Shown here: piece by piece, positions 42,840 through 56,853 of the stretch
Position numbering within the stretch: position 1 is the stretch's first letter
Layout of the letters: the number at the start of each line of letters is the position of its first letter
From: Candidatus Poribacteria bacterium
GTDB taxonomy: Bacteria; Poribacteria; WGA-4E; WGA-3G
NCBI GenBank assembly: GCA_965207855.1
Contig: OZ242310.1
Location: 2,197,881-2,261,880 of the forward strand
Direction: 5' to 3'
Length of the DNA stretch: 64,000 nucleotides
Position numbers and translations under genes: made by a program
Notes under the pieces: generated by a model
Told to the model about the DNA's origin: nothing
Seen by the model: the letters and a program-made list of their open reading frames with translations, nothing else
Database searches by the model: none

Positions 42840-42911
42840 TTTTGTATCAACGACAAAAGTTAAACGTTGCATTCTGTAAAATTACACATTTTGTCGAAAG
42901 GTATAAAACTT

Positions 42912-44339
42912 ATGGCAGGCTCCCCTTACAGCATTTTCAATTCACGTACCCCTGACGATATCCATCGCGAAATTCAAGAGGTTTATCTTAAAAACGCGCG
43001 CCCGTGGGTCATCGGGTATAGCGGTGGAAAAGATTCAACAACAGCACTCCAACTAATTTGGTATGCCCTCGCTGAATTGCCGCCAGAGCAACGGAAATAT
43101 CCTGTCTACGTGATCTCGTCCGATACGCTCGTTGAGACACCTGTCATTGTGAGCTACATCACCGGAACCTTGGACCGGATCGAAACAGTTGCCCGCGAAC
43201 AAAATATGCCGTTTCAGACCGCGCTCGTCCGTCCAAAGACGGAAGATACCTTTTGGGTAAATCTCATTGGCAAAGGATACCCCGCCCCCTACACTCGCTT
43301 TCGATGGTGCACGGATAGAATGAAAATTCAACCGGCAAACCGGTTTATATTGGAAAAAGTTGCTGAACACGGTGAAGTTATTATGGTTCTCGGGGTTCGC
43401 AAGGGTGAAAGTGCAACACGTGATCAGGTATTAAGTTTACATAGCATTCAGAATTCGTTGCTATTGCGACATAACACATTACCTAATGCCTTTGTTTACG
43501 CGCCTATCGTTGATTTCAGTTTGAACGATGTGTGGTTTTATTTATTGAATGTACCTTCACCATGGAATAACAATAACAAGGAACTTATTACACTTTACCG
43601 AAATTCAAATGCGCAAGGTGAATGCCCGTTGGTGGTTGACGAGACAACCCCATCTTGTGGGAACAGTCGCTTCGGGTGCTGGACCTGTACCGTTGTAACA
43701 AAAGACAAGGCGATGGAAGGACTCATTGATAGCGGAGAAGATTGGATGCTCCCGCTGCTTGAGTTTCGAGACTTTCTTGCTAAAACCCAAGATCCTGAAA
43801 AGAAACCTGAAATCCGCGAACATCGGCGACGGAATGGACAGGTTACGATCATCAATAATAAACTCATTCACGGTCCCTATACACTCAAGTTTTGCAAGAA
43901 ACTCCTGAAGAAACTTCTCAGAACACAACAACAAGTTCGCAAAGCGGGACCTGACCCAGATATCAAACTCATCACGGACGACGAGCTCGAAGAGATACGC
44001 AGGATCTGGCGAACCGAACGTCAAGATTGGGAAGATGCTGTCCCAAAGATTTACGCTAAATTTTTCGGTGCCCGAGATTGGATTGTTGATGACAAGATCT
44101 CCTTTGATGAGAAAGATAAGAAAATCTTGGCAGCAATTTGCAATGAAAAAGGAGTTCCTGTCACTCTTGTTTCAAAGCTCCTTGACACAGAACAACAAAT
44201 GGATGGAATGAGTCGGCGTGCTAAGATACAGTCCCGAATTGATGAAATTTTTCATGAGGATTGGCGTTCAGAAGAAGAAATAAATTCCAGTATAGGCGAT
44301 AGCGGCTCCAGCAATGATTCTCCACAAACTCATCCTTAA
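42912..44339 (+). CDS. dndC: DNA phosphorothioation sulfurtransferase DndC
   Basis: PP-loop 'WVIGYSGGKDS', 'SDTLVETP', 'LIGKGYPAP…FRWCTDRMKI', 'GECPLV…SCGNSRFGCWTCTVV'. Confidence 0.95.
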   Translation: MAGSPYSIFNSRTPDDIHREIQEVYLKNARPWVIGYSGGKDSTTALQLIWYALAELPPEQRKYPVYVISSDTLVETPVIVSYITGTLDRIETVAREQNMPFQTALVRPKTEDTFWVNLIGKGYPAPYTRFRWCTDRMKIQPANRFILEKVAEHGEVIMVLGVRKGESATRDQVLSLHSIQNSLLLRHNTLPNAFVYAPIVDFSLNDVWFYLLNVPSPWNNNNKELITLYRNSNAQGECPLVVDETTPSCGNSRFGCWTCTVVTKDKAMEGLIDSGEDWMLPLLEFRDFLAKTQDPEKKPEIREHRRRNGQVTIINNKLIHGPYTLKFCKKLLKKLLRTQQQVRKAGPDPDIKLITDDELEEIRRIWRTERQDWEDAVPKIYAKFFGARDWIVDDKISFDEKDKKILAAICNEKGVPVTLVSKLLDTEQQMDGMSRRAKIQSRIDEIFHEDWRSEEEINSSIGDSGSSNDSPQTHP

Positions 44340-46329: not shown

Positions 46330-46689
46330 ATGCGCCTAAATCGAATTCACACCTCTGAAGATTCCCGTAATAAACTGAGTATCTTAAAATCGCGTACAGG
46401 ATTATTACCCAACATTCTTTGTAGAATCGGGTTGATGCTCTCCCTTGCAGAACCTACCCAACTTGAAATTGACATAGGTGATAGTGATGGCTCGGAGTTT
46501 CATCGCGACACACTAATGGGAGAGTGGGATCCGCTGATTGTAGCATTATTGGAAGAATGGTGCGTCACCAACGGAATAGGGACGGATAACGACACGCTTC
46601 TCAAATACTTCAGGGCACATCTGAATCGAGGGATCCGTCTGCTTTATGGTCGGGTGAAAGGATTAGAAGATTTAGCAAATCTACTCTGA
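46330..46689 (+). CDS. dndE: DNA sulfur modification protein DndE
   Basis: 'LKSRTGLLPNILCRIGL.LSL', 'FRAHLNRGI'; follows dndD. Confidence 0.9.
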   Translation: MRLNRIHTSEDSRNKLSILKSRTGLLPNILCRIGLMLSLAEPTQLEIDIGDSDGSEFHRDTLMGEWDPLIVALLEEWCVTNGIGTDNDTLLKYFRAHLNRGIRLLYGRVKGLEDLANLL

Positions 46690-46744: not shown

Positions 46745-47851
46745 CTACGAGTTCGGACGACGATCTCTCAATTCAATAATTCGTTTTAGATCTTCCTCTA
46801 ATTCCCTCTGAATATCAGGATTTTCAATAATTTCATTAACCCATTGCACTCCATCGTTGACGAGTTTAGTAACTGATTGAATATATTCACTCGTACTTGG
46901 ATCGTCAAGCCGATTCTGAAAGTCTGGAATACGTTCATAAACCGAAACTGTGTGCATGATTTGATACTGTTTGTTTTCTATCCACTTGTCCTTTCGATTA
47001 TACAAATAAGTTGGTCCAGAAGTAACTGTCCATCCCAGAGTGAACAAGGCTTTAGAAATCATATATTTAGGAAGAGCAACAGAAAAAAAATCAGCGAAGT
47101 TTTCATGAACTAATTGATGAACTTGATCGTGTCCATATCGCTTAACAAACGCAAGTTGAAAAGTATTGTTCATACTTATGTTCTCGCTAACTCTGTTTAC
47201 AAGCTGTTGAATTGCGGTTTGATCTGTCAGATCTGGGTCAATATGAGAGGTTAAAAATAATGTGAATCGGTTAGATGGAAGTTCGTTGATTGAAAACCTT
47301 GATGTCGTTTGCCATTCTAAAATTTTAAGAATTGATTCCAGGAGTGGCGTTATTACACCTTTTTTGGGTGGGAACATGACACCAAACACATCAAGATTGA
47401 TAATATCAAAGGGGAAAGCATTGCGTAGGCGATAATGGGCATCTTTGCATCTAAGTTGTTCGCGGATCTCACGCGGGTAAAAACTTTCATCTTCCAGTGT
47501 TTTTCCCATGGTTTCTTCATTATCCTGAAAAAGAACAATATCTTGGAATGTGCCTTGAAAACCTTGTTCTGGTGAACCTATTAAAGTAGCAATTCTTGCA
47601 AAGTTTTCATCATTTTCCTCGCAAAAGTAAACGCCTTCTAATCGCTCTGTTTCTTCTGATCTTTTAAGAATTTCTTCACGCTCCAACATGAAAACATCAA
47701 TTGCTTCTGCTGCGCAGAAGGTAAAATACCTTAAAGGGATTCTGTTTGAGCGTCTTCTAACTGCACGTTTTTGTTGTTTAGCTGCTTTTAACCATCCATT
47801 TCTTCTAACATAATGTTTAAGAGTGTCTGTTTCAAAATTGATATGGCTCAT
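46745..47851 (-). CDS. Hypothetical protein, putative SAM-dependent methyltransferase-like fold
   Basis: 'LRYFTFCAAEAIDV' (motif I-like), 'VYFCE' (acidic motif II-like), 'FPFDIINLD' (motif IV-like); fold is an inference. Confidence 0.5.
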   Translation of the reverse strand: MSHINFETDTLKHYVRRNGWLKAAKQQKRAVRRRSNRIPLRYFTFCAAEAIDVFMLEREEILKRSEETERLEGVYFCEENDENFARIATLIGSPEQGFQGTFQDIVLFQDNEETMGKTLEDESFYPREIREQLRCKDAHYRLRNAFPFDIINLDVFGVMFPPKKGVITPLLESILKILEWQTTSRFSINELPSNRFTLFLTSHIDPDLTDQTAIQQLVNRVSENISMNNTFQLAFVKRYGHDQVHQLVHENFADFFSVALPKYMISKALFTLGWTVTSGPTYLYNRKDKWIENKQYQIMHTVSVYERIPDFQNRLDDPSTSEYIQSVTKLVNDGVQWVNEIIENPDIQRELEEDLKRIIELRDRRPNS

Positions 47852-47873
47852 CTAGATTATGTCCTATGAAAAC

Positions 47874-49460
47874 CTACAGCAAATCTAACTTTACGAAATC
47901 TGATAGTAATTGATAAAATTTTTCCCTGCGTTTTTCCTCTGGGGCTTGCAGGGAAATTTCAAAGGCATATGCAACAAGTTTTGTAACTTCCTGTTTACTT
48001 TTCGGTTTGGGTAGGAATACGCTGTGATTGTTCTCGATTATCGTCTTCTCAGAACTATCTATTTTCAAGGGAAATACTTCTTCCTCGGTAGAGATTCGTT
48101 GATAATTGTTGCCTAATTCGTTATGAATTAAAGATGTGAGAGTCTCTTCTTTTTTCTTTTCTTTATTCTCAAGTTTTTCTTGAGATCGTTTTCTTAGGGT
48201 ACGGTCTGCTTCGGGGAAAATTTTCTTTTTAAGTGCGCTATGAATGATCTCTTTGAGTCTCACGAAGTGCGGATGCAGCTCATTAAAGCTATCCCGATCT
48301 ATATTCAGAGCAAATTCCAAGCCTTCTTCAACATAGATTTCACCGGACACCCAATTGAAACGTGGTGTTGGAACCTTTGGGAACTTAAAGAGCGTTGCAT
48401 CGTAAGTCCCAATAGCAATGTTTCTGATCCTTACAAGCAAGCCTCGAAGTTCCATTGGTTCAACAGCTCGGCTGTTTTGTAAGTATATATAGCCAGATAA
48501 TTTGAGAGGTTGACCATAGACTTCGCCATCTTCGCTAACGAAGAATAACTTACCATTTGTGATTTCCTGTTTTGGTGTTTGTGGGGCACCGAGTGGATAT
48601 TGATGTGGTTTGCGTAATGATAAACCATCAACCACTATCTCAAATTGGTAGGCATTTAACGATTTTTGCAAATGATTTAACCACTCTTGTAGTTCATAAT
48701 TTACCTCAATTTTATTCCAGTCGAAAGCCCTCGCGTACGGAATTGGACATGCCAAGGTCAATTCCCAAACCATTTGCCAATAGTCACTAAGGTTTTTCAC
48801 AGACCTGGAGCGATGAATTTCTTTCAAGAATGCTGAGAATTTAGATGGTAATGGTACGGGATTTTCACCTAAAGTTTCTCGAAACTTCCTAATAAAAGCT
48901 GAACGCATATCCCACGCAATCACACAAGTTCCTGCCTTATCCTGATTATATTCTATCTCTTCGACTATAAATTCGCCAACATCAATGGGATGCTTAGAGA
49001 TTTCATCTGGAGAAACACGGCTTATTTTCTCCCGAAGAAAATCTACCAAGCGTACGCTTGCCCTGAAAGCTGTTTTACTTTCTCTGTGATGTGAGATGAC
49101 TTTGAATTCGTGACAAATTTGTGCGATTCCTAGCATTCCGATGCCTAACCACCCAATTATAGGTCTCTGCAAATTTGTCAAATCATTAACACCTCCATTA
49201 GTAGCGACCCGTTTATTACTATCACCAATCCCTCCGGTCATTATTTTTTTAAAGTCTTTTTTGGCCATACCACAACCATTATCACGGCATGTGATAATGT
49301 CAAAGCTGGGCCAATTCGTGGTAATTTCTACACGGGTCGCATCAGCGTCAAACGCATTGCTAACCAATTCTTTTATTGCGCCAGCCGGACTACGATAGAT
49401 ACCGGCACTAATGTGTCCTAAAATTTTTGAACTAACCCTAATATTTTCCCAATAACTCAT
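47874..49460 (-). CDS. GHKL (prokaryotic MORC/HATPase_c_3-type) ATPase
   Basis: N-box 'AIKELVSNAFDADA', G1 'DNGCGM', G2 'IGWLGIG', 'GT'; S5-like 'VSGEIYV…NIDRDSF'; RBS gaggtg before ATG 49460. Confidence 0.85.
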   Translation of the reverse strand: MSYWENIRVSSKILGHISAGIYRSPAGAIKELVSNAFDADATRVEITTNWPSFDIITCRDNGCGMAKKDFKKIMTGGIGDSNKRVATNGGVNDLTNLQRPIIGWLGIGMLGIAQICHEFKVISHHRESKTAFRASVRLVDFLREKISRVSPDEISKHPIDVGEFIVEEIEYNQDKAGTCVIAWDMRSAFIRKFRETLGENPVPLPSKFSAFLKEIHRSRSVKNLSDYWQMVWELTLACPIPYARAFDWNKIEVNYELQEWLNHLQKSLNAYQFEIVVDGLSLRKPHQYPLGAPQTPKQEITNGKLFFVSEDGEVYGQPLKLSGYIYLQNSRAVEPMELRGLLVRIRNIAIGTYDATLFKFPKVPTPRFNWVSGEIYVEEGLEFALNIDRDSFNELHPHFVRLKEIIHSALKKKIFPEADRTLRKRSQEKLENKEKKKEETLTSLIHNELGNNYQRISTEEEVFPLKIDSSEKTIIENNHSVFLPKPKSKQEVTKLVAYAFEISLQAPEEKRREKFYQLLSDFVKLDLL

Positions 49461-49710
49461 AGAGCACCTCATCTGTTTTGACAACTAAATTACGGCACTT
49501 CTTAAATACAGCATATAGGAGTCTGTGACTAAAGTTAATCGCTTTCTAATGAGAAGATTGTAACACAATTCACGAAAGAAATCAATTTTTCAGGAAAAAA
49601 ATTGATTTGATATTTATTTTCGTGCTCAAGATACCGAATAAGCATCAAGATAGAGAATATGGAGACAGGAAAATGCGATGATTTTTGAAGTGGTGTTCAG
49701 GTAGATGGCT

Positions 49711-50214
49711 CTAAAAAACCGCAGATATCAATCTGTTATACGGAGACCAATTAAAAAGTAAATCCACTAAGTTAGTAATTCTGTCGCCGGGCATATCTTC
49801 AACGTGCTTCTGAATTTCTCTAATTCCACCGTTGGCATATTCTTCAGCAATCGTTAGAATTTGATCCTGATCCGTTAACACTTCAACTTCTTCTGTTTCT
49901 GCAAGTGCTAAAGATCGAAGTAATGGAACATCTTCTTCAGGTGAAAAACGAGCCCATGCGAAAATCATTTCCTTATCTTTTCCAAGCGGAACCCTTTTTT
50001 CCTGGTTGTAACCTATAAAGGTGGCTAACATGAAAATATTTTTCATTGACTCGAAGGGCGATAACTCTTGATGGTTTCCATTCTCTCGCGGTTTCGTTAA
50101 TGCTATATAGGTTGGATGATGAATCTTATCAATACGAATACGATCCCGAGGTTTCCGGGATTGCTGGCTTCTATCTCCGTCGGTGTTTGAAAGCATTATA
50201 TTTTCTCCTACCAA
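49711..50214 (-). CDS. pbeD: PbeD-like / phosphorothioation-associated small protein
   Basis: 'PFESMKNIFMLATFIGY', 'IAEEYANGG'; last gene of the PLD-helicase/small/ATPase operon. Confidence 0.65.
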   Translation of the reverse strand: MVGENIMLSNTDGDRSQQSRKPRDRIRIDKIHHPTYIALTKPRENGNHQELSPFESMKNIFMLATFIGYNQEKRVPLGKDKEMIFAWARFSPEEDVPLLRSLALAETEEVEVLTDQDQILTIAEEYANGGIREIQKHVEDMPGDRITNLVDLLFNWSPYNRLISAVF

Positions 50215-52172
50215 ATTTCTTTAATCTTGGAAGTTTTCGCTTCTCGATCAAATTCTAATTCATACTCCGCACCAATTCGGGATGCAAGATTTGCTTTCGC
50301 TTGTCCTTGCAACTCCTCATCAGTTACGAATAGCACCAACTGGTTAGCGATGTCTGGTATTATTCTCGTTATATTTTCTCTGTGTCTTCTGGAAAGTCTA
50401 CCGAAAGCTGTATCCATTACAATTGGGAAGGGTTCTTCCTTAAGTTGAGGAATTGTTTCCTGAACCGCCACTTTCGCCATTGCAGCAATAAAAGAAAGGC
50501 TGAGAACTTGACGCTGTCCTGCGGAAAGTTCTGGCAGGACATCTTCTCCAGACTCGTCAATTACTTGAAGTTCATAGTCTTTATTAAGCAATACCTCTCG
50601 AAAATGATCGCCATTCCACACCAACTCTTTGAAAATTTTCTCGGTTTCTGATTGAACATGCCCTCTCATATTTTCTGCAAATAATTCATATATTTTAGCC
50701 ATTGCTTTTGAAGAATCATCAGCAAGTTTCCAATAATGTTTTAATTCTTCTGCTTTAGCGTTTGAATCCTTTTCAGTATTAATTTTCTGACTTAGTTTGG
50801 TTATTTCCATGCCAATTTCTTGAATTCGTCCCTTAATCTGATTTATCTCACCTTCTAATTTCGGGATACTCCGTTCATACTCTTTACGTCGCTTTTCCAA
50901 GTTATTGGCTTCATCATGATCCAAATCTGCTAATGCTCGATCAATCTCTTCCAAGCGTCTTTTTTTTCTCCTAACGTTCTGCTCCAATTCTTCTTCATTA
51001 CTTAGAATTGATTTTAAATTATTCGGAATTCTTTCAACATGAGTTCGCACTAAATGCGTCAAATCGCTATGGGTTTCCTGGGCAATATGACCCAAATTTG
51101 CCGAAATAGATTGACTGAGCAAGTTCTTGATAACTTTGATTTCTGGACTCTGGTCGTGAATAGGTCTGCCACAAAGACATTGTCGCTTATCAAGTAATTC
51201 GTTCAAAAGTGTATCTGGAAGTCCAGTTGGGACTTCTCGAAGAATTTCCAATCCTTTATCAAGCACAGATTTTGCTAAAGGAATAAAGCCCTGATTAGCC
51301 AAACTACGAGTTTGCTCTTGGTACTCTACTTTTTTATCTTTAAGCTGCTTCAGTGCTGATTCAATTGCTTTTCGCTCATCAATCAACTTACGTAAACCCT
51401 TAATATCCTCCAATCGAGCGTCGATATCCTGTTTTTGTTTTTTAGCGAACTTGACTTCTTCTTGTAAGAGTTCTATCTTTTTTGATAATTCGCTGCGGAC
51501 AGATTTTTTCGTTCTTCTTACTTCAAGTAATGGCTTTAACTTGCCCGAGGCATGTCTGTTTACTTGACGTTGATACTCACTCGCGACATCTTCTAAATGC
51601 CTCATACCTCGTTCAATTTCCTCAACCTTCAAAACATTGCGAACAGCACTTTCAACTTCCGTTTTACGATCTGGTCTAGTAAAGTTGTCAATTTTTTCTC
51701 CATCAAAAAAGAAGTGTACACTCACATTTTCAGGAATTATTGCCTGAATCCAGTTTGAGGCCTCGGTGTCCTGAAATTCTCGCCAATTGGTGATTTTTAG
51801 GAAGAGTTGTGTCGTAGTGCGTCCTGTTCCGTCCAGTCGTAAAGCCCTTTGTATTTCTCGTTTGGCACAGAATTCAACTTCTTGATCAGGGAACATTCCA
51901 TGATAAGTAAAACGAAGTTCCACAGAAGTTTCGGTCACTCCGCCTTCCGCTAAGGCACGTCTATTCACCAATTCGCCAATATCACCGATGTTTCTCTTAA
52001 CAAAATCATCGCCATATAAACACCAGTTGATGGCTGTAAACAGAGAAGTTTTTCCAGCACCATTAACACCTTGAATTACAGTTACATGACGTTCATCATC
52101 GGTGGCGAAATTTATAGTATGCTTTCCATAATATGGCCTAAAATTCTTTAATTCTATGCTGTTAATCTTCAC
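50208..52172 (-). CDS. pbeC: PbeC-like SMC/Rad50-type ATPase (DndD paralog) with central CxC
   Basis: 'NFRPYYG', 'GVNGAGKT', 'FFFDGE', 'CLCGR', 'LSAGQRQ', 'VMDTAFGRLS..HR', 'LFVTDEE'. Confidence 0.8.
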   Translation of the reverse strand: MKINSIELKNFRPYYGKHTINFATDDERHVTVIQGVNGAGKTSLFTAINWCLYGDDFVKRNIGDIGELVNRRALAEGGVTETSVELRFTYHGMFPDQEVEFCAKREIQRALRLDGTGRTTTQLFLKITNWREFQDTEASNWIQAIIPENVSVHFFFDGEKIDNFTRPDRKTEVESAVRNVLKVEEIERGMRHLEDVASEYQRQVNRHASGKLKPLLEVRRTKKSVRSELSKKIELLQEEVKFAKKQKQDIDARLEDIKGLRKLIDERKAIESALKQLKDKKVEYQEQTRSLANQGFIPLAKSVLDKGLEILREVPTGLPDTLLNELLDKRQCLCGRPIHDQSPEIKVIKNLLSQSISANLGHIAQETHSDLTHLVRTHVERIPNNLKSILSNEEELEQNVRRKKRRLEEIDRALADLDHDEANNLEKRRKEYERSIPKLEGEINQIKGRIQEIGMEITKLSQKINTEKDSNAKAEELKHYWKLADDSSKAMAKIYELFAENMRGHVQSETEKIFKELVWNGDHFREVLLNKDYELQVIDESGEDVLPELSAGQRQVLSLSFIAAMAKVAVQETIPQLKEEPFPIVMDTAFGRLSRRHRENITRIIPDIANQLVLFVTDEELQGQAKANLASRIGAEYELEFDREAKTSKIKEIW

Positions 52173-52342
52173 TGATTCTTAACCTCGTCTTGGATAATTC
52201 GGCGGATTTCGCGCTTGATACCTTGAGGTCGCTTCATATCCAATTTTTCACGTTCGACCTGAAGAACTCTATCAATAACTTTATTTACGGCGGATGGTAA
52301 GGTTTGTCTAAATTTTTCTACTTGGTTTTCCATCTTTTCCAT
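52169..52342 (-). CDS. pbeB: PbeB-like 57-aa protein (absent from the ORF track)
   Basis: MEKMENQVEKFRQTLPSAVNKVIDRVLQVEREKLDMKRPQGIKREIRRIIQDEVKNQ; TGATG overlap with pbeA and GTGA overlap with pbeC; name assigned by position. Confidence 0.7.
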   Translation of the reverse strand: MEKMENQVEKFRQTLPSAVNKVIDRVLQVEREKLDMKRPQGIKREIRRIIQDEVKNQ

Positions 52343-54405
52343 CAAGAGACTCCCAATGCCCCTAAAAGATCATAATCCTTAGCGAGTTCCCATATTTTAT
52401 CACGCGCCTCAAATTTATTTAAGGCCATTCCAGCGAATTCGTTAAATCGCTCTAATTCCCGCGCAATAATTTTCCGCTCTGTACGGAACGTTGAAGTCGG
52501 ATACTCTTGATAATCTATAGGCGGAACAGCGATTAGATCATGGATCTCTGCGTGTTCTTTACCAGTGGACTGTCGGAGAATCCGCCCACGCCGTTGAATA
52601 AATTCTTTTGGATTACTACTGCTTGCAAGGATGTAAGCGGTTCGGGTACTTGGTACGTCAACACCTTCATCCAGACACCTCATTGCTACAAGAGCTTGAA
52701 GATGTCCAGAGGCGAACATTTTTAACAATTCTTGTCTTTCAGCAGCTGATTCCTTAGAAGTGAACTTTGCAACTCGCACACCTAAAGTAGTTAATAATTC
52801 GAGAACTGGAATGATTCGCCCCGGAGCACAGTAAAACAGTGTATGATGCAGGGAGTCAGTCTTGCCAGTTAATAATTCTGCCAACTGTATCAGCTTGTTT
52901 TCTGCTCGGTTAAGTAGCGTTGCTCGTTTTATCAGTAACCGTTCAAGTACTTCACTTGTCTCACCAGATTCTATGTGATGGTAAAGTTTTGAAATTCTTT
53001 CCGTGAGACGTTCGTACGCTTCAAATTCCCCATCAGTCAATTCGACGAGATGTGGATGATAATAGTAAGGACAGAGATACCCCATTTTAATTGCTTCGTC
53101 AAGAGAAAATTCGTAAACTGTATCTCCAAAATATGCTTTGAGTGCCGTCGTACCTGATGGGTCAAACCACCGGTTAGGGGTCGCTGACAAACCAAGGCGA
53201 TAATTAAAAACATCGGTTAATCTTTTTCGACTCCGTTCTGCCCCAAGATGATGAACTTCATCTGCTACTAAGACAGCTCTACGCTTCAATTTGGATAGCA
53301 GTTTCTGCATAGTCTCAGCAATAAAAGTGGTTTGTGTTGTAATAGTACAGACAATATCGCGAACACCATAATTATATCGCACCAAAGCAGTGTTAAGCCG
53401 GTTTACCCAAGTTGCAGAGTTTTTGTATGCCAGGATCGGTTCAAACCCAAACTTGATAGCGTCCTCATACCACTGATCGACGAGGTGTTGATATGGACAC
53501 GCAATAACAACAAACAAGTGCTCCTTTTCCTCCTTGAGTTTTGCAAGAGCAGAAAGAGCAGTGATGGTCTTACCCGTTCCCGTTGCCATTTCCCATAAAC
53601 CACGGCATCCGTTTTCAAACCAAGCGTTGACTGCTTCCGTTTGATAATCCCTTAATACCAAGCCGCTTGGTAAATATGTAACGGGCGGCTCAATTATTTC
53701 TGATCGATTCGCAGGTAGCAAATCAGGGATTGTTTCGTATACAGTTTGGTAAATCAAAAGATCATTCGCAACTGCCGTCGGAAAATCTATGACTTCCAAC
53801 TTGTCGGTTGTATTATTCCATAACCGATTAAAATTATCAACCTTTTGTTGAACTCGTTGTTGGGTATCATCCCATGATAGATGAACGTCAACGGACTCAA
53901 AATTGCTTAACAACCCACCGACCGTCTCGTTCTGTGAGCCACCGAACGCAACGGCATTTTTTAAATCATCTAAAAAAACACCTATCTTTTCATGATAGAT
54001 TGCTTGTGGATTAAACGCGCGTGTATTCAAGGGACGTGCGATTTTGATGTCTAAATGTCCGTGGGCAATGAGCCATGTGAGCATCGTCAGCCGGTCGTGG
54101 GTAACCTCTTTGAAACCGCAATTAAGGGAAGGAGCGAGATTGCGTTCCTTTGCATCGTAGCCTCGTTGGATTGCCTGTATGTCATCTGCCATTAATTTAG
54201 GACCGGTCACAAGTTTCATCTGCCCGTCGCGGCGGATGAAGGTTGCCAATCCTCCGGCATTGAGTGCCAGACCGTTGCTGGTAAAATAGCCAACCGCTCG
54301 CCAATATTGCGTAGCATTTCTCAGGCATGGCGTATAAAAGTCTTTGATGAGGTTTGCTCCGTCAGAGCGATATTCGTACTTTAGTTGGGTTTCTTTAAGA
54401 GACAT
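52342..54405 (-). CDS. pbeA: PbeA-like PLD-nuclease + SF2 helicase (phosphorothioation-associated restriction protein)
   Basis: 'YWRAVGYFTS', PLD 'YHEKIGVF.D…GSQNET', 'MATGTGKT', 'DEVHH', 'GLSATP', 'LDEGVDVP', 'QRRGRILR'. Confidence 0.85.
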   Translation of the reverse strand: MSLKETQLKYEYRSDGANLIKDFYTPCLRNATQYWRAVGYFTSNGLALNAGGLATFIRRDGQMKLVTGPKLMADDIQAIQRGYDAKERNLAPSLNCGFKEVTHDRLTMLTWLIAHGHLDIKIARPLNTRAFNPQAIYHEKIGVFLDDLKNAVAFGGSQNETVGGLLSNFESVDVHLSWDDTQQRVQQKVDNFNRLWNNTTDKLEVIDFPTAVANDLLIYQTVYETIPDLLPANRSEIIEPPVTYLPSGLVLRDYQTEAVNAWFENGCRGLWEMATGTGKTITALSALAKLKEEKEHLFVVIACPYQHLVDQWYEDAIKFGFEPILAYKNSATWVNRLNTALVRYNYGVRDIVCTITTQTTFIAETMQKLLSKLKRRAVLVADEVHHLGAERSRKRLTDVFNYRLGLSATPNRWFDPSGTTALKAYFGDTVYEFSLDEAIKMGYLCPYYYHPHLVELTDGEFEAYERLTERISKLYHHIESGETSEVLERLLIKRATLLNRAENKLIQLAELLTGKTDSLHHTLFYCAPGRIIPVLELLTTLGVRVAKFTSKESAAERQELLKMFASGHLQALVAMRCLDEGVDVPSTRTAYILASSSNPKEFIQRRGRILRQSTGKEHAEIHDLIAVPPIDYQEYPTSTFRTERKIIARELERFNEFAGMALNKFEARDKIWELAKDYDLLGALGVS

Positions 54406-55212: not shown

Positions 55213-56043
55213 ATGAGACTATTTATGATTGTTGCCAGCGTGCTATGCGCTGCAACCCTTGTGCTTCTGGCACCCACAGCCGATGCTGCGAATAAAGTAG
55301 ATGTGTTTATCTACACAGATACAGTGCAATGGATCGGTCAAGCCGCAGCAGTAGAAGAAGCCGAAATACTGGCAGACCTACTTGATGGACAAGACGGCAT
55401 CGGTGAACTCATCCTTCACGGCCCAGCAAAAACTGTCGAAGCCTGGACAAAAGACCATACCGTAGACAATGGACACCATCTCATTGTCATGTTCGGTGAT
55501 GTACCCGTCGAAATTTACGACGTCGGGAAAGACGCAAAAAAAGAAACTGTCGCCGAGGAATTCCTTGACGCAGGGAATACCTTCTCGAATAGTGCCGACT
55601 ACTTTTTCTGGGGACAGGGCGGCAGAAATGAAGAAGCCGGTATCAAGAATATGATGGATATCCCCAATATGGTGCAGTGGGATGATAATACGGCTATGGA
55701 GGTCACCAAAGAGGGGAAAGACCTTACACCCACACTTGATGACTACGCAACAGACCGACCCTTCCACGTTGATAAGCTTGATGGGGATTGGGTTTTAGAA
55801 ATCGCATTCGCGTCAGATACCGGGGATCAAAAAGCCGACCGTTGCGATCCGTGTATCGTCCACAATACGAAGACGAATGGACGACTCATTCAGGTCTACC
55901 AAACCGCTAACCAAGATGACCCGAAAGGCGAGGTCATCGCTGAAATTATTCTCAACTACTACCTTGAAACTGTCGGCGCACTTGACGTTGACCCACAAGA
56001 TAAACTTCCCGCTTTATGGGGAGATATGAAAAGAAGGAGATAA
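55213..56043 (+). CDS. Secreted acidic protein with C-terminal VDPQDKLPALWGDMK motif
   Basis: Signal peptide (ADA|A), RBS aggag; paralog of the next gene. Confidence 0.75.
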   Translation: MRLFMIVASVLCAATLVLLAPTADAANKVDVFIYTDTVQWIGQAAAVEEAEILADLLDGQDGIGELILHGPAKTVEAWTKDHTVDNGHHLIVMFGDVPVEIYDVGKDAKKETVAEEFLDAGNTFSNSADYFFWGQGGRNEEAGIKNMMDIPNMVQWDDNTAMEVTKEGKDLTPTLDDYATDRPFHVDKLDGDWVLEIAFASDTGDQKADRCDPCIVHNTKTNGRLIQVYQTANQDDPKGEVIAEIILNYYLETVGALDVDPQDKLPALWGDMKRRR

Positions 56044-56049
56044 CATTTA

Positions 56050-56853
56050 ATGCGAAATATTTTTCTCTCACTCACGCTTATTGCGCTAATGGCACTGCCG
56101 CTAACACCGATCTTTGCCGCCGGTGAAGTCGCTATCTACACCGGAACCACGCAGTGGATCGGTAAAGCACCCGCCGACGAGCAGGCACAAATCTGTGTTG
56201 ATATGCTCAACGATGCCGGGATTTCTAACACATGGTTCGATAGCGACGGCGATATGGATGCCCTCGCGGATTGGATGGAAAGTGTTACAGGTGATGATGG
56301 ACTCGACATCTGTGTTCTCTATGGTGATTTTCCACCGACCCTGTATCCAGACGGCAATGCGCAACCCGATGGCACCATCGGTGAAACCTTCATCGAAACC
56401 ACGGACGGCGATGTGTTCATCAACCACGCCGACTATATGTTCTGGGGACTCGGTGGCAGAAACGAGGCAGGCGGACTCCAAAACATGATGGATATCGATG
56501 GCATTACCATGTGGGACGATAATACCGATATGGTCGTCACCTCCGAAGGCGCGGCGATCTCTCCGACGCTCACCGATTTCCAATCTGACCGTCCCTTTCA
56601 CGTTGATGAGTTAGAGGGCAATTGGGAAGTCGAAGTTTCTCTCGCACAGAACGACGATGGCACCCGTGCCGATCCGATTATTGTGCGCGACGGAAACCTC
56701 GGTCGACTGATTCCGGTGATACAGACAGCGAATGGCGATGAAGAGAAAGGCGCAGTTGCTGCCGAAATTATCACCTGGCTCATGGCAACAACACCGGTTG
56801 AACCTGCTGACAAGCTTTCCACAACGTGGGGTGCTTTGAAAGCAGTCCGATAA
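56050..56853 (+). CDS. Secreted acidic protein (paralog) with C-terminal VEPADKLSTTWGALK motif
   Basis: Signal peptide; shares QWIG, ADY.FWG.GGRNE, NMMDI, WDDNT, DRPFHVD, KG.V.AEII with the upstream gene. Confidence 0.75.
   Translation: MRNIFLSLTLIALMALPLTPIFAAGEVAIYTGTTQWIGKAPADEQAQICVDMLNDAGISNTWFDSDGDMDALADWMESVTGDDGLDICVLYGDFPPTLYPDGNAQPDGTIGETFIETTDGDVFINHADYMFWGLGGRNEAGGLQNMMDIDGITMWDDNTDMVVTSEGAAISPTLTDFQSDRPFHVDELEGNWEVEVSLAQNDDGTRADPIIVRDGNLGRLIPVIQTANGDEEKGAVAAEIITWLMATTPVEPADKLSTTWGALKAVR

Follow-up and report, generated by a model that had tools for sequence, protein, structure and literature searches.

We examined a two-gene unit, consisting of an ATPase gene and a partner gene, in a 64,000-nucleotide (nt) stretch of a Candidatus Poribacteria bacterium genome (contig OZ242310.1, positions 2,197,881 to 2,261,880; the whole stretch is hereafter referred to as the window). 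Comparison with its relatives leads us to propose, with a probability of roughly 45%, that this pair is the constant core of a modular, modification-coupled, and nuclease-free restriction-like system, and that the window carries its phosphorothioate (PT)-coupled branch. The features of the pair are as follows (window coordinates; aa, amino acids).

47874-49460, minus strand: ATPase gene (gene 1), GHKL, paraMORC/Hsp90-like by predicted architecture; 528 aa from the ATG; Pfam HATPase_c_3
47852-47873, minus strand: intergenic spacer from the ATPase gene to the partner gene, 22 nt
46745-47851, minus strand: partner gene (gene 2), 368 aa; family PF28273 'PP_RS20740'; predicted class-I methyltransferase fold
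49461-49710, minus strand: upstream region of the ATPase gene, 250 nt, between the pbeD stop (49711) and the ATPase ATG
49585-49557, minus strand: promoter-like site, the single one in the 250-nt upstream region

In the mechanism that we propose, the ATPase would dimerise upon ATP binding and clamp DNA, as its MORC, MutL, and Hsp90-type relatives do. The partner would bind S-adenosylmethionine (SAM) via a retained Rossmann pocket and may act as a reader of DNA or of its modification state, since the catalytic loop usual in amino-methyltransferases appears to have been lost. DNA without the host mark, here the PT from DndCDE, would be trapped, silenced, or passed to nucleases encoded elsewhere in the island; the pair itself would not cut DNA. 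It may work beside or instead of PbeABCD, as a second self/non-self arm on the same PT mark. The proposed role matches the one suggested in 2008 for paraMORC ATPases in restriction-modification (R-M) operons, where passages of that study predict those found beside cytosine methylases and Vsr to be R-M components (PMC2292703).

The two genes are inherited as a unit

Searches with the partner returned 188 homologues, and 442 clusters exist at 50% identity. The ATPase gene is located directly upstream of the partner gene, on the same strand, in all 28 assessable loci among 29 species-representative genome loci; the sequence of the 29th (L018) starts 100 nt before the partner. The spacer between the two genes is 17-23 nt long in 15 of the 28 genome loci. 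A further 80 loci came from metagenomes, with partner identities of 26-61%, and were considered assessable with about 280 nt or more of upstream sequence; nine were too short. A profile search detected an upstream ATPase in 69 of the remaining 71. The overall pairing is 97/99 assessable loci, in counts that include near-duplicate metagenome loci (L053-L056, L092/94/95, L106/110, and L031/32).

The two proteins also diverge together. For the 70 loci with both proteins at full length (39 of 109 loci were excluded, as one gene was truncated), pairwise identities of the ATPase and of the partner are correlated with r = 0.97 (0.94 for pairs below 50% identity), and none of 999 permutations gave a value as high. 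This correlation indicates co-inheritance rather than binding, as shared descent alone can produce it. Together with the constant gene order, it shows that the ATPase and its partner are inherited as a unit, in agreement with a preliminary description of this DNA that had treated the two genes as one cassette.

Predicted architecture of the two proteins

The ATPase matches Pfam HATPase_c_3 with 54 bits (2e-14; cut-off 25). Its best matches in NCBIfam and PADLOC are confined to the N-terminal 130-160 residues and include models for the BbrUII/HgiDII restriction enzyme, MutL, an HSP90-family protein, the sacsin N-terminal domain, REase_II, and MzaB; the PADLOC REase_II and MzaB models match the N-terminus only, at 1e-7 to 2e-5. 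Across 18 aligned homologues with identities as low as 31%, the residues E31, N35, D38, D60, G62, G64, G103, G106, and G108 are invariant. The Bergerat-fold ATP motifs (N-box E/N, G1 DxGxG, and G2 glycines) are intact and thus place the protein in the GHKL superfamily. The loop ALNIDRDSF (N386-F392, including R389) is invariant in the same alignment, and R389 may be the transducer finger residue that supplies a basic side chain to the ATP site. The ATG start is common to all 18 aligned homologues; an alternative TTG start at 49484 would give a protein of 536 aa.

The AlphaFold model of the ATPase (predicted local distance difference test score, pLDDT, of 78.4) matches GRP94 with a Z-score of 18.3 over 284 residues (root-mean-square deviation, rmsd, of 3.9). 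Further fold matches are Morc3 (Z 17.2), SMCHD1 (16.3), MORC2 (16.0), the MutL N-terminal domain (15.1), and topoisomerase ATPase domains. All fold matches span residues ~8-420, which correspond to the N-terminal and middle domains, and the model points to a MORC/MutL/Hsp90-type architecture with an N-terminal and a transducer/middle domain. The invariant motifs and these two-domain matches support the earlier view of gene 1 as having the GHKL boxes and an S5-like region without a nuclease tail. The last 95 residues (434-528) are the least conserved stretch of the family. A nuclease in this tail was considered and rejected: the zincin/YbeY-like matches are weak (Z ≤6.2), and neither an HExxH nor a YbeY-type His motif is present.

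Within the MORC-like proteins, the residues of E394-x-x-x-H398 are each found in at least 90% of the 18 ATPase sequences, and L025 lacks the Glu. Passages of PMC2292703 give ExxxH at the end of the transducer as the signature of paraMORC2, and GhXhhpXXRhl in the S5 domain as the motif of MORC proper. By this one motif, the ATPase would belong to the paraMORC2 subfamily; judged by eye, its segment G340-LLVRIRNIAIG seems not to fit the S5 pattern of MORC proper.

For the partner, precomputed annotation assigns PF28273 to all 120 of the homologues listed, one of them 99% identical, and the nearest protein-atlas clusters also carry this family under the name 'PP_RS20740'. The NCBIfam equivalog model NF047698 PP_RS20740 matches residues 137-309 only, with 70.1 bits (2e-19), below its cut-off of 200; five distant relatives of the partner score 42-98 bits against it. 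A Pfam copy that does not contain PF28273 gave only chance-level matches for the partner and PADLOC none, and searches against PDB sequences, whether by single protein or by family profile, returned nothing meaningful. The namesake of the family is a hypothetical protein, of which the V338F variant aids furfural tolerance in Pseudomonas putida according to passages of one study (PMC9630843).

The model of the partner has a pLDDT of 87.9 and a predicted template modelling score (pTM) of 0.88. Its best fold match is the Aquifex Trm1 (3axt_A; Z 14.1, rmsd 4.1, 223 residues, 14% identity). Below it, other methyltransferases match at Z 9.7-11.4, among them the methyltransferase domains of LlaBIII, BsaXI, and DrdV. 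Among the best 50 fold matches, 49 are methyltransferases or methyltransferase domains, with 6kpd at rank 29 (VIA) as the exception; Foldseek alone gave weak matches (E ≥0.008). The model indicates a class-I SAM-methyltransferase fold for the partner, in keeping with the Rossmann-like strands and SAM fold that had been read from the sequence of gene 2.

Residue conservation among 49 family members, down to 23% identity, is consistent with this fold. Eight residues are invariant, namely D52, P147, D149, N152, D154, T201, N224, and K262. At position 78, where strand 2 ends, 37 of the 49 sequences carry E and 12 carry D. An acidic side chain at this point binds the SAM ribose in class-I methyltransferases. 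The loop after strand 1 has small residues (C46, A/G47, and A50). Strand 4 carries the motif F-P-F-D-(I/V)-x-N-(L/F)-D, after which come a hydrophobic residue (L/F/V/P/I), a variable one, and mostly Gly. The motif IV of amino-methyltransferases, (D/N/S)PP(Y/F/W), or DPFG in Trm1, is absent, and Pro occurs at +1 in 5 of the 49 partners. As had been noted before, the partner contains no DPPY/NPPF/PC motif. From these residues and the model, we infer that the partner probably retains a nucleotide pocket, likely for SAM, and that its methyl-transfer loop is non-canonical or lost. The preliminary description had further suggested that it modifies a non-canonical target or consumes SAM, for which nothing in our analysis gives support.

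These observations bear on the possibility that the partner is an active SAM-dependent methyltransferase for DNA, tRNA/rRNA (Trm1-like), or protein, with the Hsp90-like ATPase as its chaperone or regulator. Such an activity would agree with Trm1 as the best fold match (Z 14.1), the small residues of the motif I loop, the acidic motif II residue in 49/49 sequences, and the invariant Asp of motif IV. However, this motif reads N-L-D-(L/F/V)-x-G, without Pro-Pro or Pro-aromatic, and a bona fide modifier gene already adjoins most of the loci. The patchy distribution (22/176 genomes of the phylum, see below) and the location in a low-GC (guanine plus cytosine) island also speak against a methyltransferase of this kind, which we consider distinctly improbable.

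A different assignment of the strand-4 segment 'PFD..NLD', as a PD-(D/E)xK nuclease motif, was also rejected; the match to the methyltransferase fold is strong and no Lys follows. A search for fused or longer forms of the partner, which constitutes weak evidence, found none. Neither the partner nor two distant relatives matched anything by tblastn in phage and plasmid collections, and a scan of viral contigs for the partner gave pattern matches only, with no confirmed relatives.

Association with DNA modification genes and layout of the island

To place the pair in its phylum, we surveyed 176 species genomes of the phylum to which the window belongs, counting DndC above its cut-off. The partner is present in 22 genomes and DndC in 64. 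All 22 partner genomes carry dndC, and in 21 genomes the two genes share a contig and lie at most 10 kb apart; the hypergeometric probability of 22/22 is 1.4e-11, a value that is overstated, as the genomes are related. Every partner genome has dndC, yet 42 of the 64 genomes with dndC do without the pair, which is therefore an optional extra of dnd islands in this phylum. The suggestion made earlier that it is an accessory arm of PT defence fits these counts.

Among the close relatives of the partner (L001-L024, identity of at least 51%), dndC, dndD, and dndE are found in the fetched flanks of 22/24 loci and pbe genes in 16/24. Of the two other loci, L023 has a divergent DndC-like gene, and L002 has none nearby, with dndC on a different contig of that genome. 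The pair may be located between dndE and pbeD as in the window, after dndE on the same strand (L004, L010, L013, L014, and L016), or before pbeA (L022). Six loci have dndCDE and the pair without pbe genes in the fetched flanks (L003, L006, L007, L012, L018, and L024).

Distant relatives are attached to other modification enzymes. For 39 metagenome loci with at least 1.3 kb of upstream sequence, we assigned modifier types by BLASTP to exemplars annotated via Pfam or NCBIfam. The gene upstream of the pair is an N6_N4 DNA methylase in 21 loci, a lone dndC in four, a radical SAM or radical SAM-like gene in four, a dnd/pbe gene in two, and another methyltransferase-like gene in one. The junctions between modifier and pair are often -4 to +3 nt. 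Among the genome loci of distant relatives, a methylase of the N6_N4 type is present in L025 and one of the C5 type in each of L026, L028, and L029. Vsr follows the pair in L029, and the methylase and the ATPase-partner pair of L028 flank a complete NaeI R-M pair. The one upstream methylase that was scanned (L053) is a nearly full-length match to REBASE-type Type II methylase models in PADLOC. In a partner tree (FastTree, midpoint-rooted, no support values), the sequences fall into three clades, one with C5 loci, one with N6_N4 loci, and one that combines the dnd/pbe-linked, lone-dndC, and radical SAM loci. These patterns show that the branches of the family follow the kind of DNA mark and that the unit is attached to varied DNA-marking enzymes. 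The view of the pair as an isolated cassette is not supported by this comparison: elsewhere, members of the family immediately follow an N6/N4 or C5 DNA methylase, a lone dndC, or a radical SAM gene.

The same data argue against an independent defence or accessory system that merely co-resides in islands with dnd, pbe, and R-M genes. Co-residence would explain the separate 250-nt upstream region, the variable position and orientation within the island, the location of pair and dndC on different contigs in L002, and the NaeI R-M pair that intervenes in L028. It would not be expected to give dndC in 22/22 partner genomes as compared with 64/176 overall, branches that follow the modifier type, or overlapping junctions with modifiers in many unrelated loci, and we regard it as quite unlikely.

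In four metagenome loci, dndC, the ATPase gene, and the partner gene form operons with junctions of 0-4 nt (L051:5065-9100, L059, L106, and L110), which may represent a minimal or alternative PT machinery. The dndC products of L051 and L106 score 398 and 406 bits against TIGR03183 (cut-off 290), and those of L059 and L110 were assigned by BLASTP homology. In another group (L039, L041, L042, L043, and L027:6933-8210), a radical SAM or B12-binding radical SAM-like gene replaces the methylase, which hints at a new DNA modification.

The lone-dndC triads favour the main rival explanation, according to which the pair is a dyad of ATPase and DNA-binding protein, similar to DndD-DndE, that scans DNA for modification enzymes (dndC, methylases, and radical SAM) or targets them to it, and thus belongs to the modification half of the system. 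By BLASTP, no DndD or DndE was found on the contigs of these triads, which fit a modification-making role better than restriction. Neither protein of the pair has a nuclease, and passages of a recent study propose that a co-evolving DndD-DndE core can recruit cytosine methylases that replace the PT enzymes (PMC10853773). On the other hand, the Dcm-type C5 methylases and the Type II-like methylases of 410-440 aa found ahead of the pair have their own target recognition and normally act alone. A second scanner would also be redundant in the window and 21 other genome loci that already carry complete dndCDE, and 42 of the 64 dndC genomes of the phylum manage without the pair. We find this explanation possible but doubtful.

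The boldest of the readings joins both functions. The pair would be a modification-agnostic self/non-self engine, which delivers a marking enzyme to DNA and also blocks unmarked DNA without cutting it, a dual role that would resemble that of Type I systems. It would stand in for DndD and DndE in the lone-dndC triads and constitute a new minimal phosphorothioation machinery, and the radical SAM triads would pair with a new DNA modification. We consider this combined role rather unlikely.

Several results weigh against our preferred reading, the constant core of a nuclease-free restriction-like system. Domain and fold searches found no nuclease, helicase, or other effector domain in either protein, and the relationship of the partner to SAM-methyltransferases is by predicted fold only. 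The literature on the PF28273 family yielded no other namesake study and no phenotype for any member. In the clade of the window, the coupling to dnd is one of neighbourhood and not of operon, because a 250-nt gap separates the pair from the upstream gene and its position and orientation in the dnd-pbe island vary among relatives. No recognised modifier is found upstream in 7/39 metagenome loci, and two of the 71 assessable metagenome loci (L038 and L081) have a partner without the ATPase. The lack of DndD and DndE from the contigs of the lone-dndC triads belongs with these points.

In the window, the pair lies between dndCDE on the plus strand and pbeABCD on the minus strand, in the same direction as pbe. 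The neighbouring genes are the following.

42867-44339, plus strand: dndC; PADLOC DndC 2e-201; TIGR03183 above the cut-off in its own genome
44314-46323, plus strand: dndD; PADLOC DndD 2e-203
46330-46689, plus strand: dndE; Pfam DndE 2e-26; PADLOC DndE 4e-32
49711-50214, minus strand: pbeD (dnd_assoc_4-like); NCBIfam TIGR04062 2.4e-15, under the cut-off; adjoins pbeC in relatives too
50208-52172, minus strand: pbeC; PADLOC PbeC 2e-124
52169-52345, minus strand: pbeB candidate, a 58-aa open reading frame (ORF) with 4-nt overlaps with the pbeA stop and the pbeC start; assigned by position only, with no match to the PADLOC PbeB model
52342-54405, minus strand: pbeA (PLD/HKD and superfamily 2 helicase); PADLOC PbeA 5e-245; Pfam ResIII, Helicase_C, and PLDc_2

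The layout given in the preliminary description, with two genes, a 22-nt gap, an upstream region of ~250 bp, and dndE and pbeD as flanks, was confirmed in its coordinates, with both genes on the minus strand. That description also called the pair an AT-rich operon. The GC content over the pair is indeed 0.37-0.40, but the whole block of ~42.5-55.5 kb is also low at 0.37-0.46, as compared with 0.50-0.55 outside, and low GC marks the whole island without singling out the pair. A promoter of its own for the pair is not supported: a sigma-70-like promoter scan gave nine sites versus 8.9 expected, and a terminator scan was likewise within chance. Three RNA-library contigs match the pair, namely X16 and X19 in the partner gene (47084-47781, 0-1 differences) and X20 in the 5' part of the ATPase gene (49206-49414); carry-over of DNA is possible for these matches.

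Some relatives have additional genes next to the pair. In L007 (L007:4202-8193), a four-gene cassette lies between dndE and the pair, where other relatives carry pbeABCD. It encodes an SNF2 helicase (ZorD/DpdE-like, PADLOC), a ParB_N protein, a ParB protein with a helix-turn-helix (ParB-HTH), and a nuclease similar to metallo-beta-lactamase (MBL)/beta-CASP proteins. ORFs of the same sizes are found in L003 and L012, and the same spacing in L024. A cassette of this type may provide another form of restriction linked to PT. In L002 (L002:7347-8339), the gene immediately upstream of the pair encodes an HNH_2 protein that resembles the NCBIfam 'phosphorothioated DNA-binding restriction endonuclease' (8e-41), with 140 bits and thus under the cut-off of 180. 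In L066 (L066:2951-4936), a second and longer HATPase_c_3 protein (661 aa) is encoded upstream of the methylase-ATPase-partner triad. The solitary partner gene of L081 (L081:3314-4340) has no ATPase gene in the 3.3 kb upstream and adjoins a gene for a DUF3987 protein. At the edge of the low-GC island in the window, two ORFs (276 and 267 aa) are located at 55213-56853 on the plus strand; they have no match in Pfam or PADLOC and no meaningful match in NCBIfam.

Comparison with known systems

The closest described proteins are the paraMORC and paraMORC2 ATPases (PMC2292703). Passages of that study attribute to them the GHKL head followed by an S5/transducer region, the intact ATP motifs, and the ExxxH that are found in the ATPase of the pair, and relatives of the pair likewise adjoin cytosine methylases and Vsr. 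In contrast, the text of sections 4-5 of the same study mentions neither a partner with a methyltransferase fold nor a link to dnd. The class of the ATPase and its R-M context were thus predicted in 2008, and the partner and the coupling to dnd were found in none of the papers searched.

The DndCDE-PbeABCD systems (PMC6459918; PMC10853773) are similar in that the pair is embedded in such an island and, like Pbe, would rely on the PT mark with no evident step of DNA degradation. The pair differs from them in that it is not among the described dnd, pbe, dndFGH, and ssp genes and has no PADLOC model. The main text of the 2024 reappraisal of PT systems makes no mention of GHKL, MORC, or HSP90 (PMC10853773). 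No system model of PADLOC 2.0 matches the pair beyond the ATPase head, and the same holds for the relatives in L028 and L053, in line with the absence of a PADLOC match that the preliminary description had anticipated. In the literature searched, including the main text of PMC10853773 and the text of PMC2292703, we found no description of the pair, of the function of the partner, or of its coupling to dnd. The pair is not a one-off cassette, being a branch of a broad family of PF28273 proteins with paraMORC-type ATPases.

A similar gene layout is known from the HEF_HK (PF19191) and Response_reg_2 (PF19192) duplets, which follow C5 methylases and, in passages of a 2021 study, are read as regulators and linked to paraMORCs (PMC8011034). 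As in our pair, a HATPase_c_3 protein and a second protein form a fixed pair behind a DNA methylase. This shared order, from methylase to HATPase_c_3 protein to second protein, is what would make the pair a two-component-like regulator of the neighbouring modification or restriction genes, with a kinase-like ATPase and a receiver-like protein. However, the duplets belong to other hidden Markov model families, and neither PF19191 nor PF19192 matches the ATPase (E up to 0.01), the partner (E up to 10), or their relatives. The ATPase has the predicted architecture of MutL/Hsp90/MORC proteins, without the dimerisation domain of a histidine kinase, and the predicted fold of the partner is that of a methyltransferase and differs from CheY. 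A role as regulator is highly improbable.

Trm1, the tRNA (m2,2G26) methyltransferase, is alike as the best structural match of the partner, and its strand-4 motif, which we take to be F-D-x-I-(D/N)-L-D, is similar to that of the partner. It differs in that no relationship exists at the sequence level, the residues after the Asp in the partner are not Pro-Phe, and the genomic context of the pair is DNA modification, not translation.

If the proposed core of a nuclease-free restriction-like system is correct, the PT mark may have its third reader in this pair. To our knowledge, how PT-based systems discriminate self from non-self and how nuclease-free systems (Pbe and BREX) arrest phages is still unclear. 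As a widespread module of two or three genes, with 442 partner clusters, the pair offers a compact test case for an ATP-driven clamp that reads DNA modification, and the same question of clamp and modification applies to the eukaryotic MORC proteins. The variants with lone dndC and radical SAM genes may in turn reveal new ways to write DNA modifications.

The BREX systems consist of six genes, in which a methyltransferase-fold protein and an ATPase discriminate by DNA modification without a known nuclease. The pair, for which such a role is proposed only, would likewise be a modification-coupled defence without a nuclease that combines a methyltransferase-fold protein with an ATPase. It differs in that its module contains two or three genes and shares no families with BREX, save for a remote similarity between DndC, encoded by a neighbouring gene, and BrxP.

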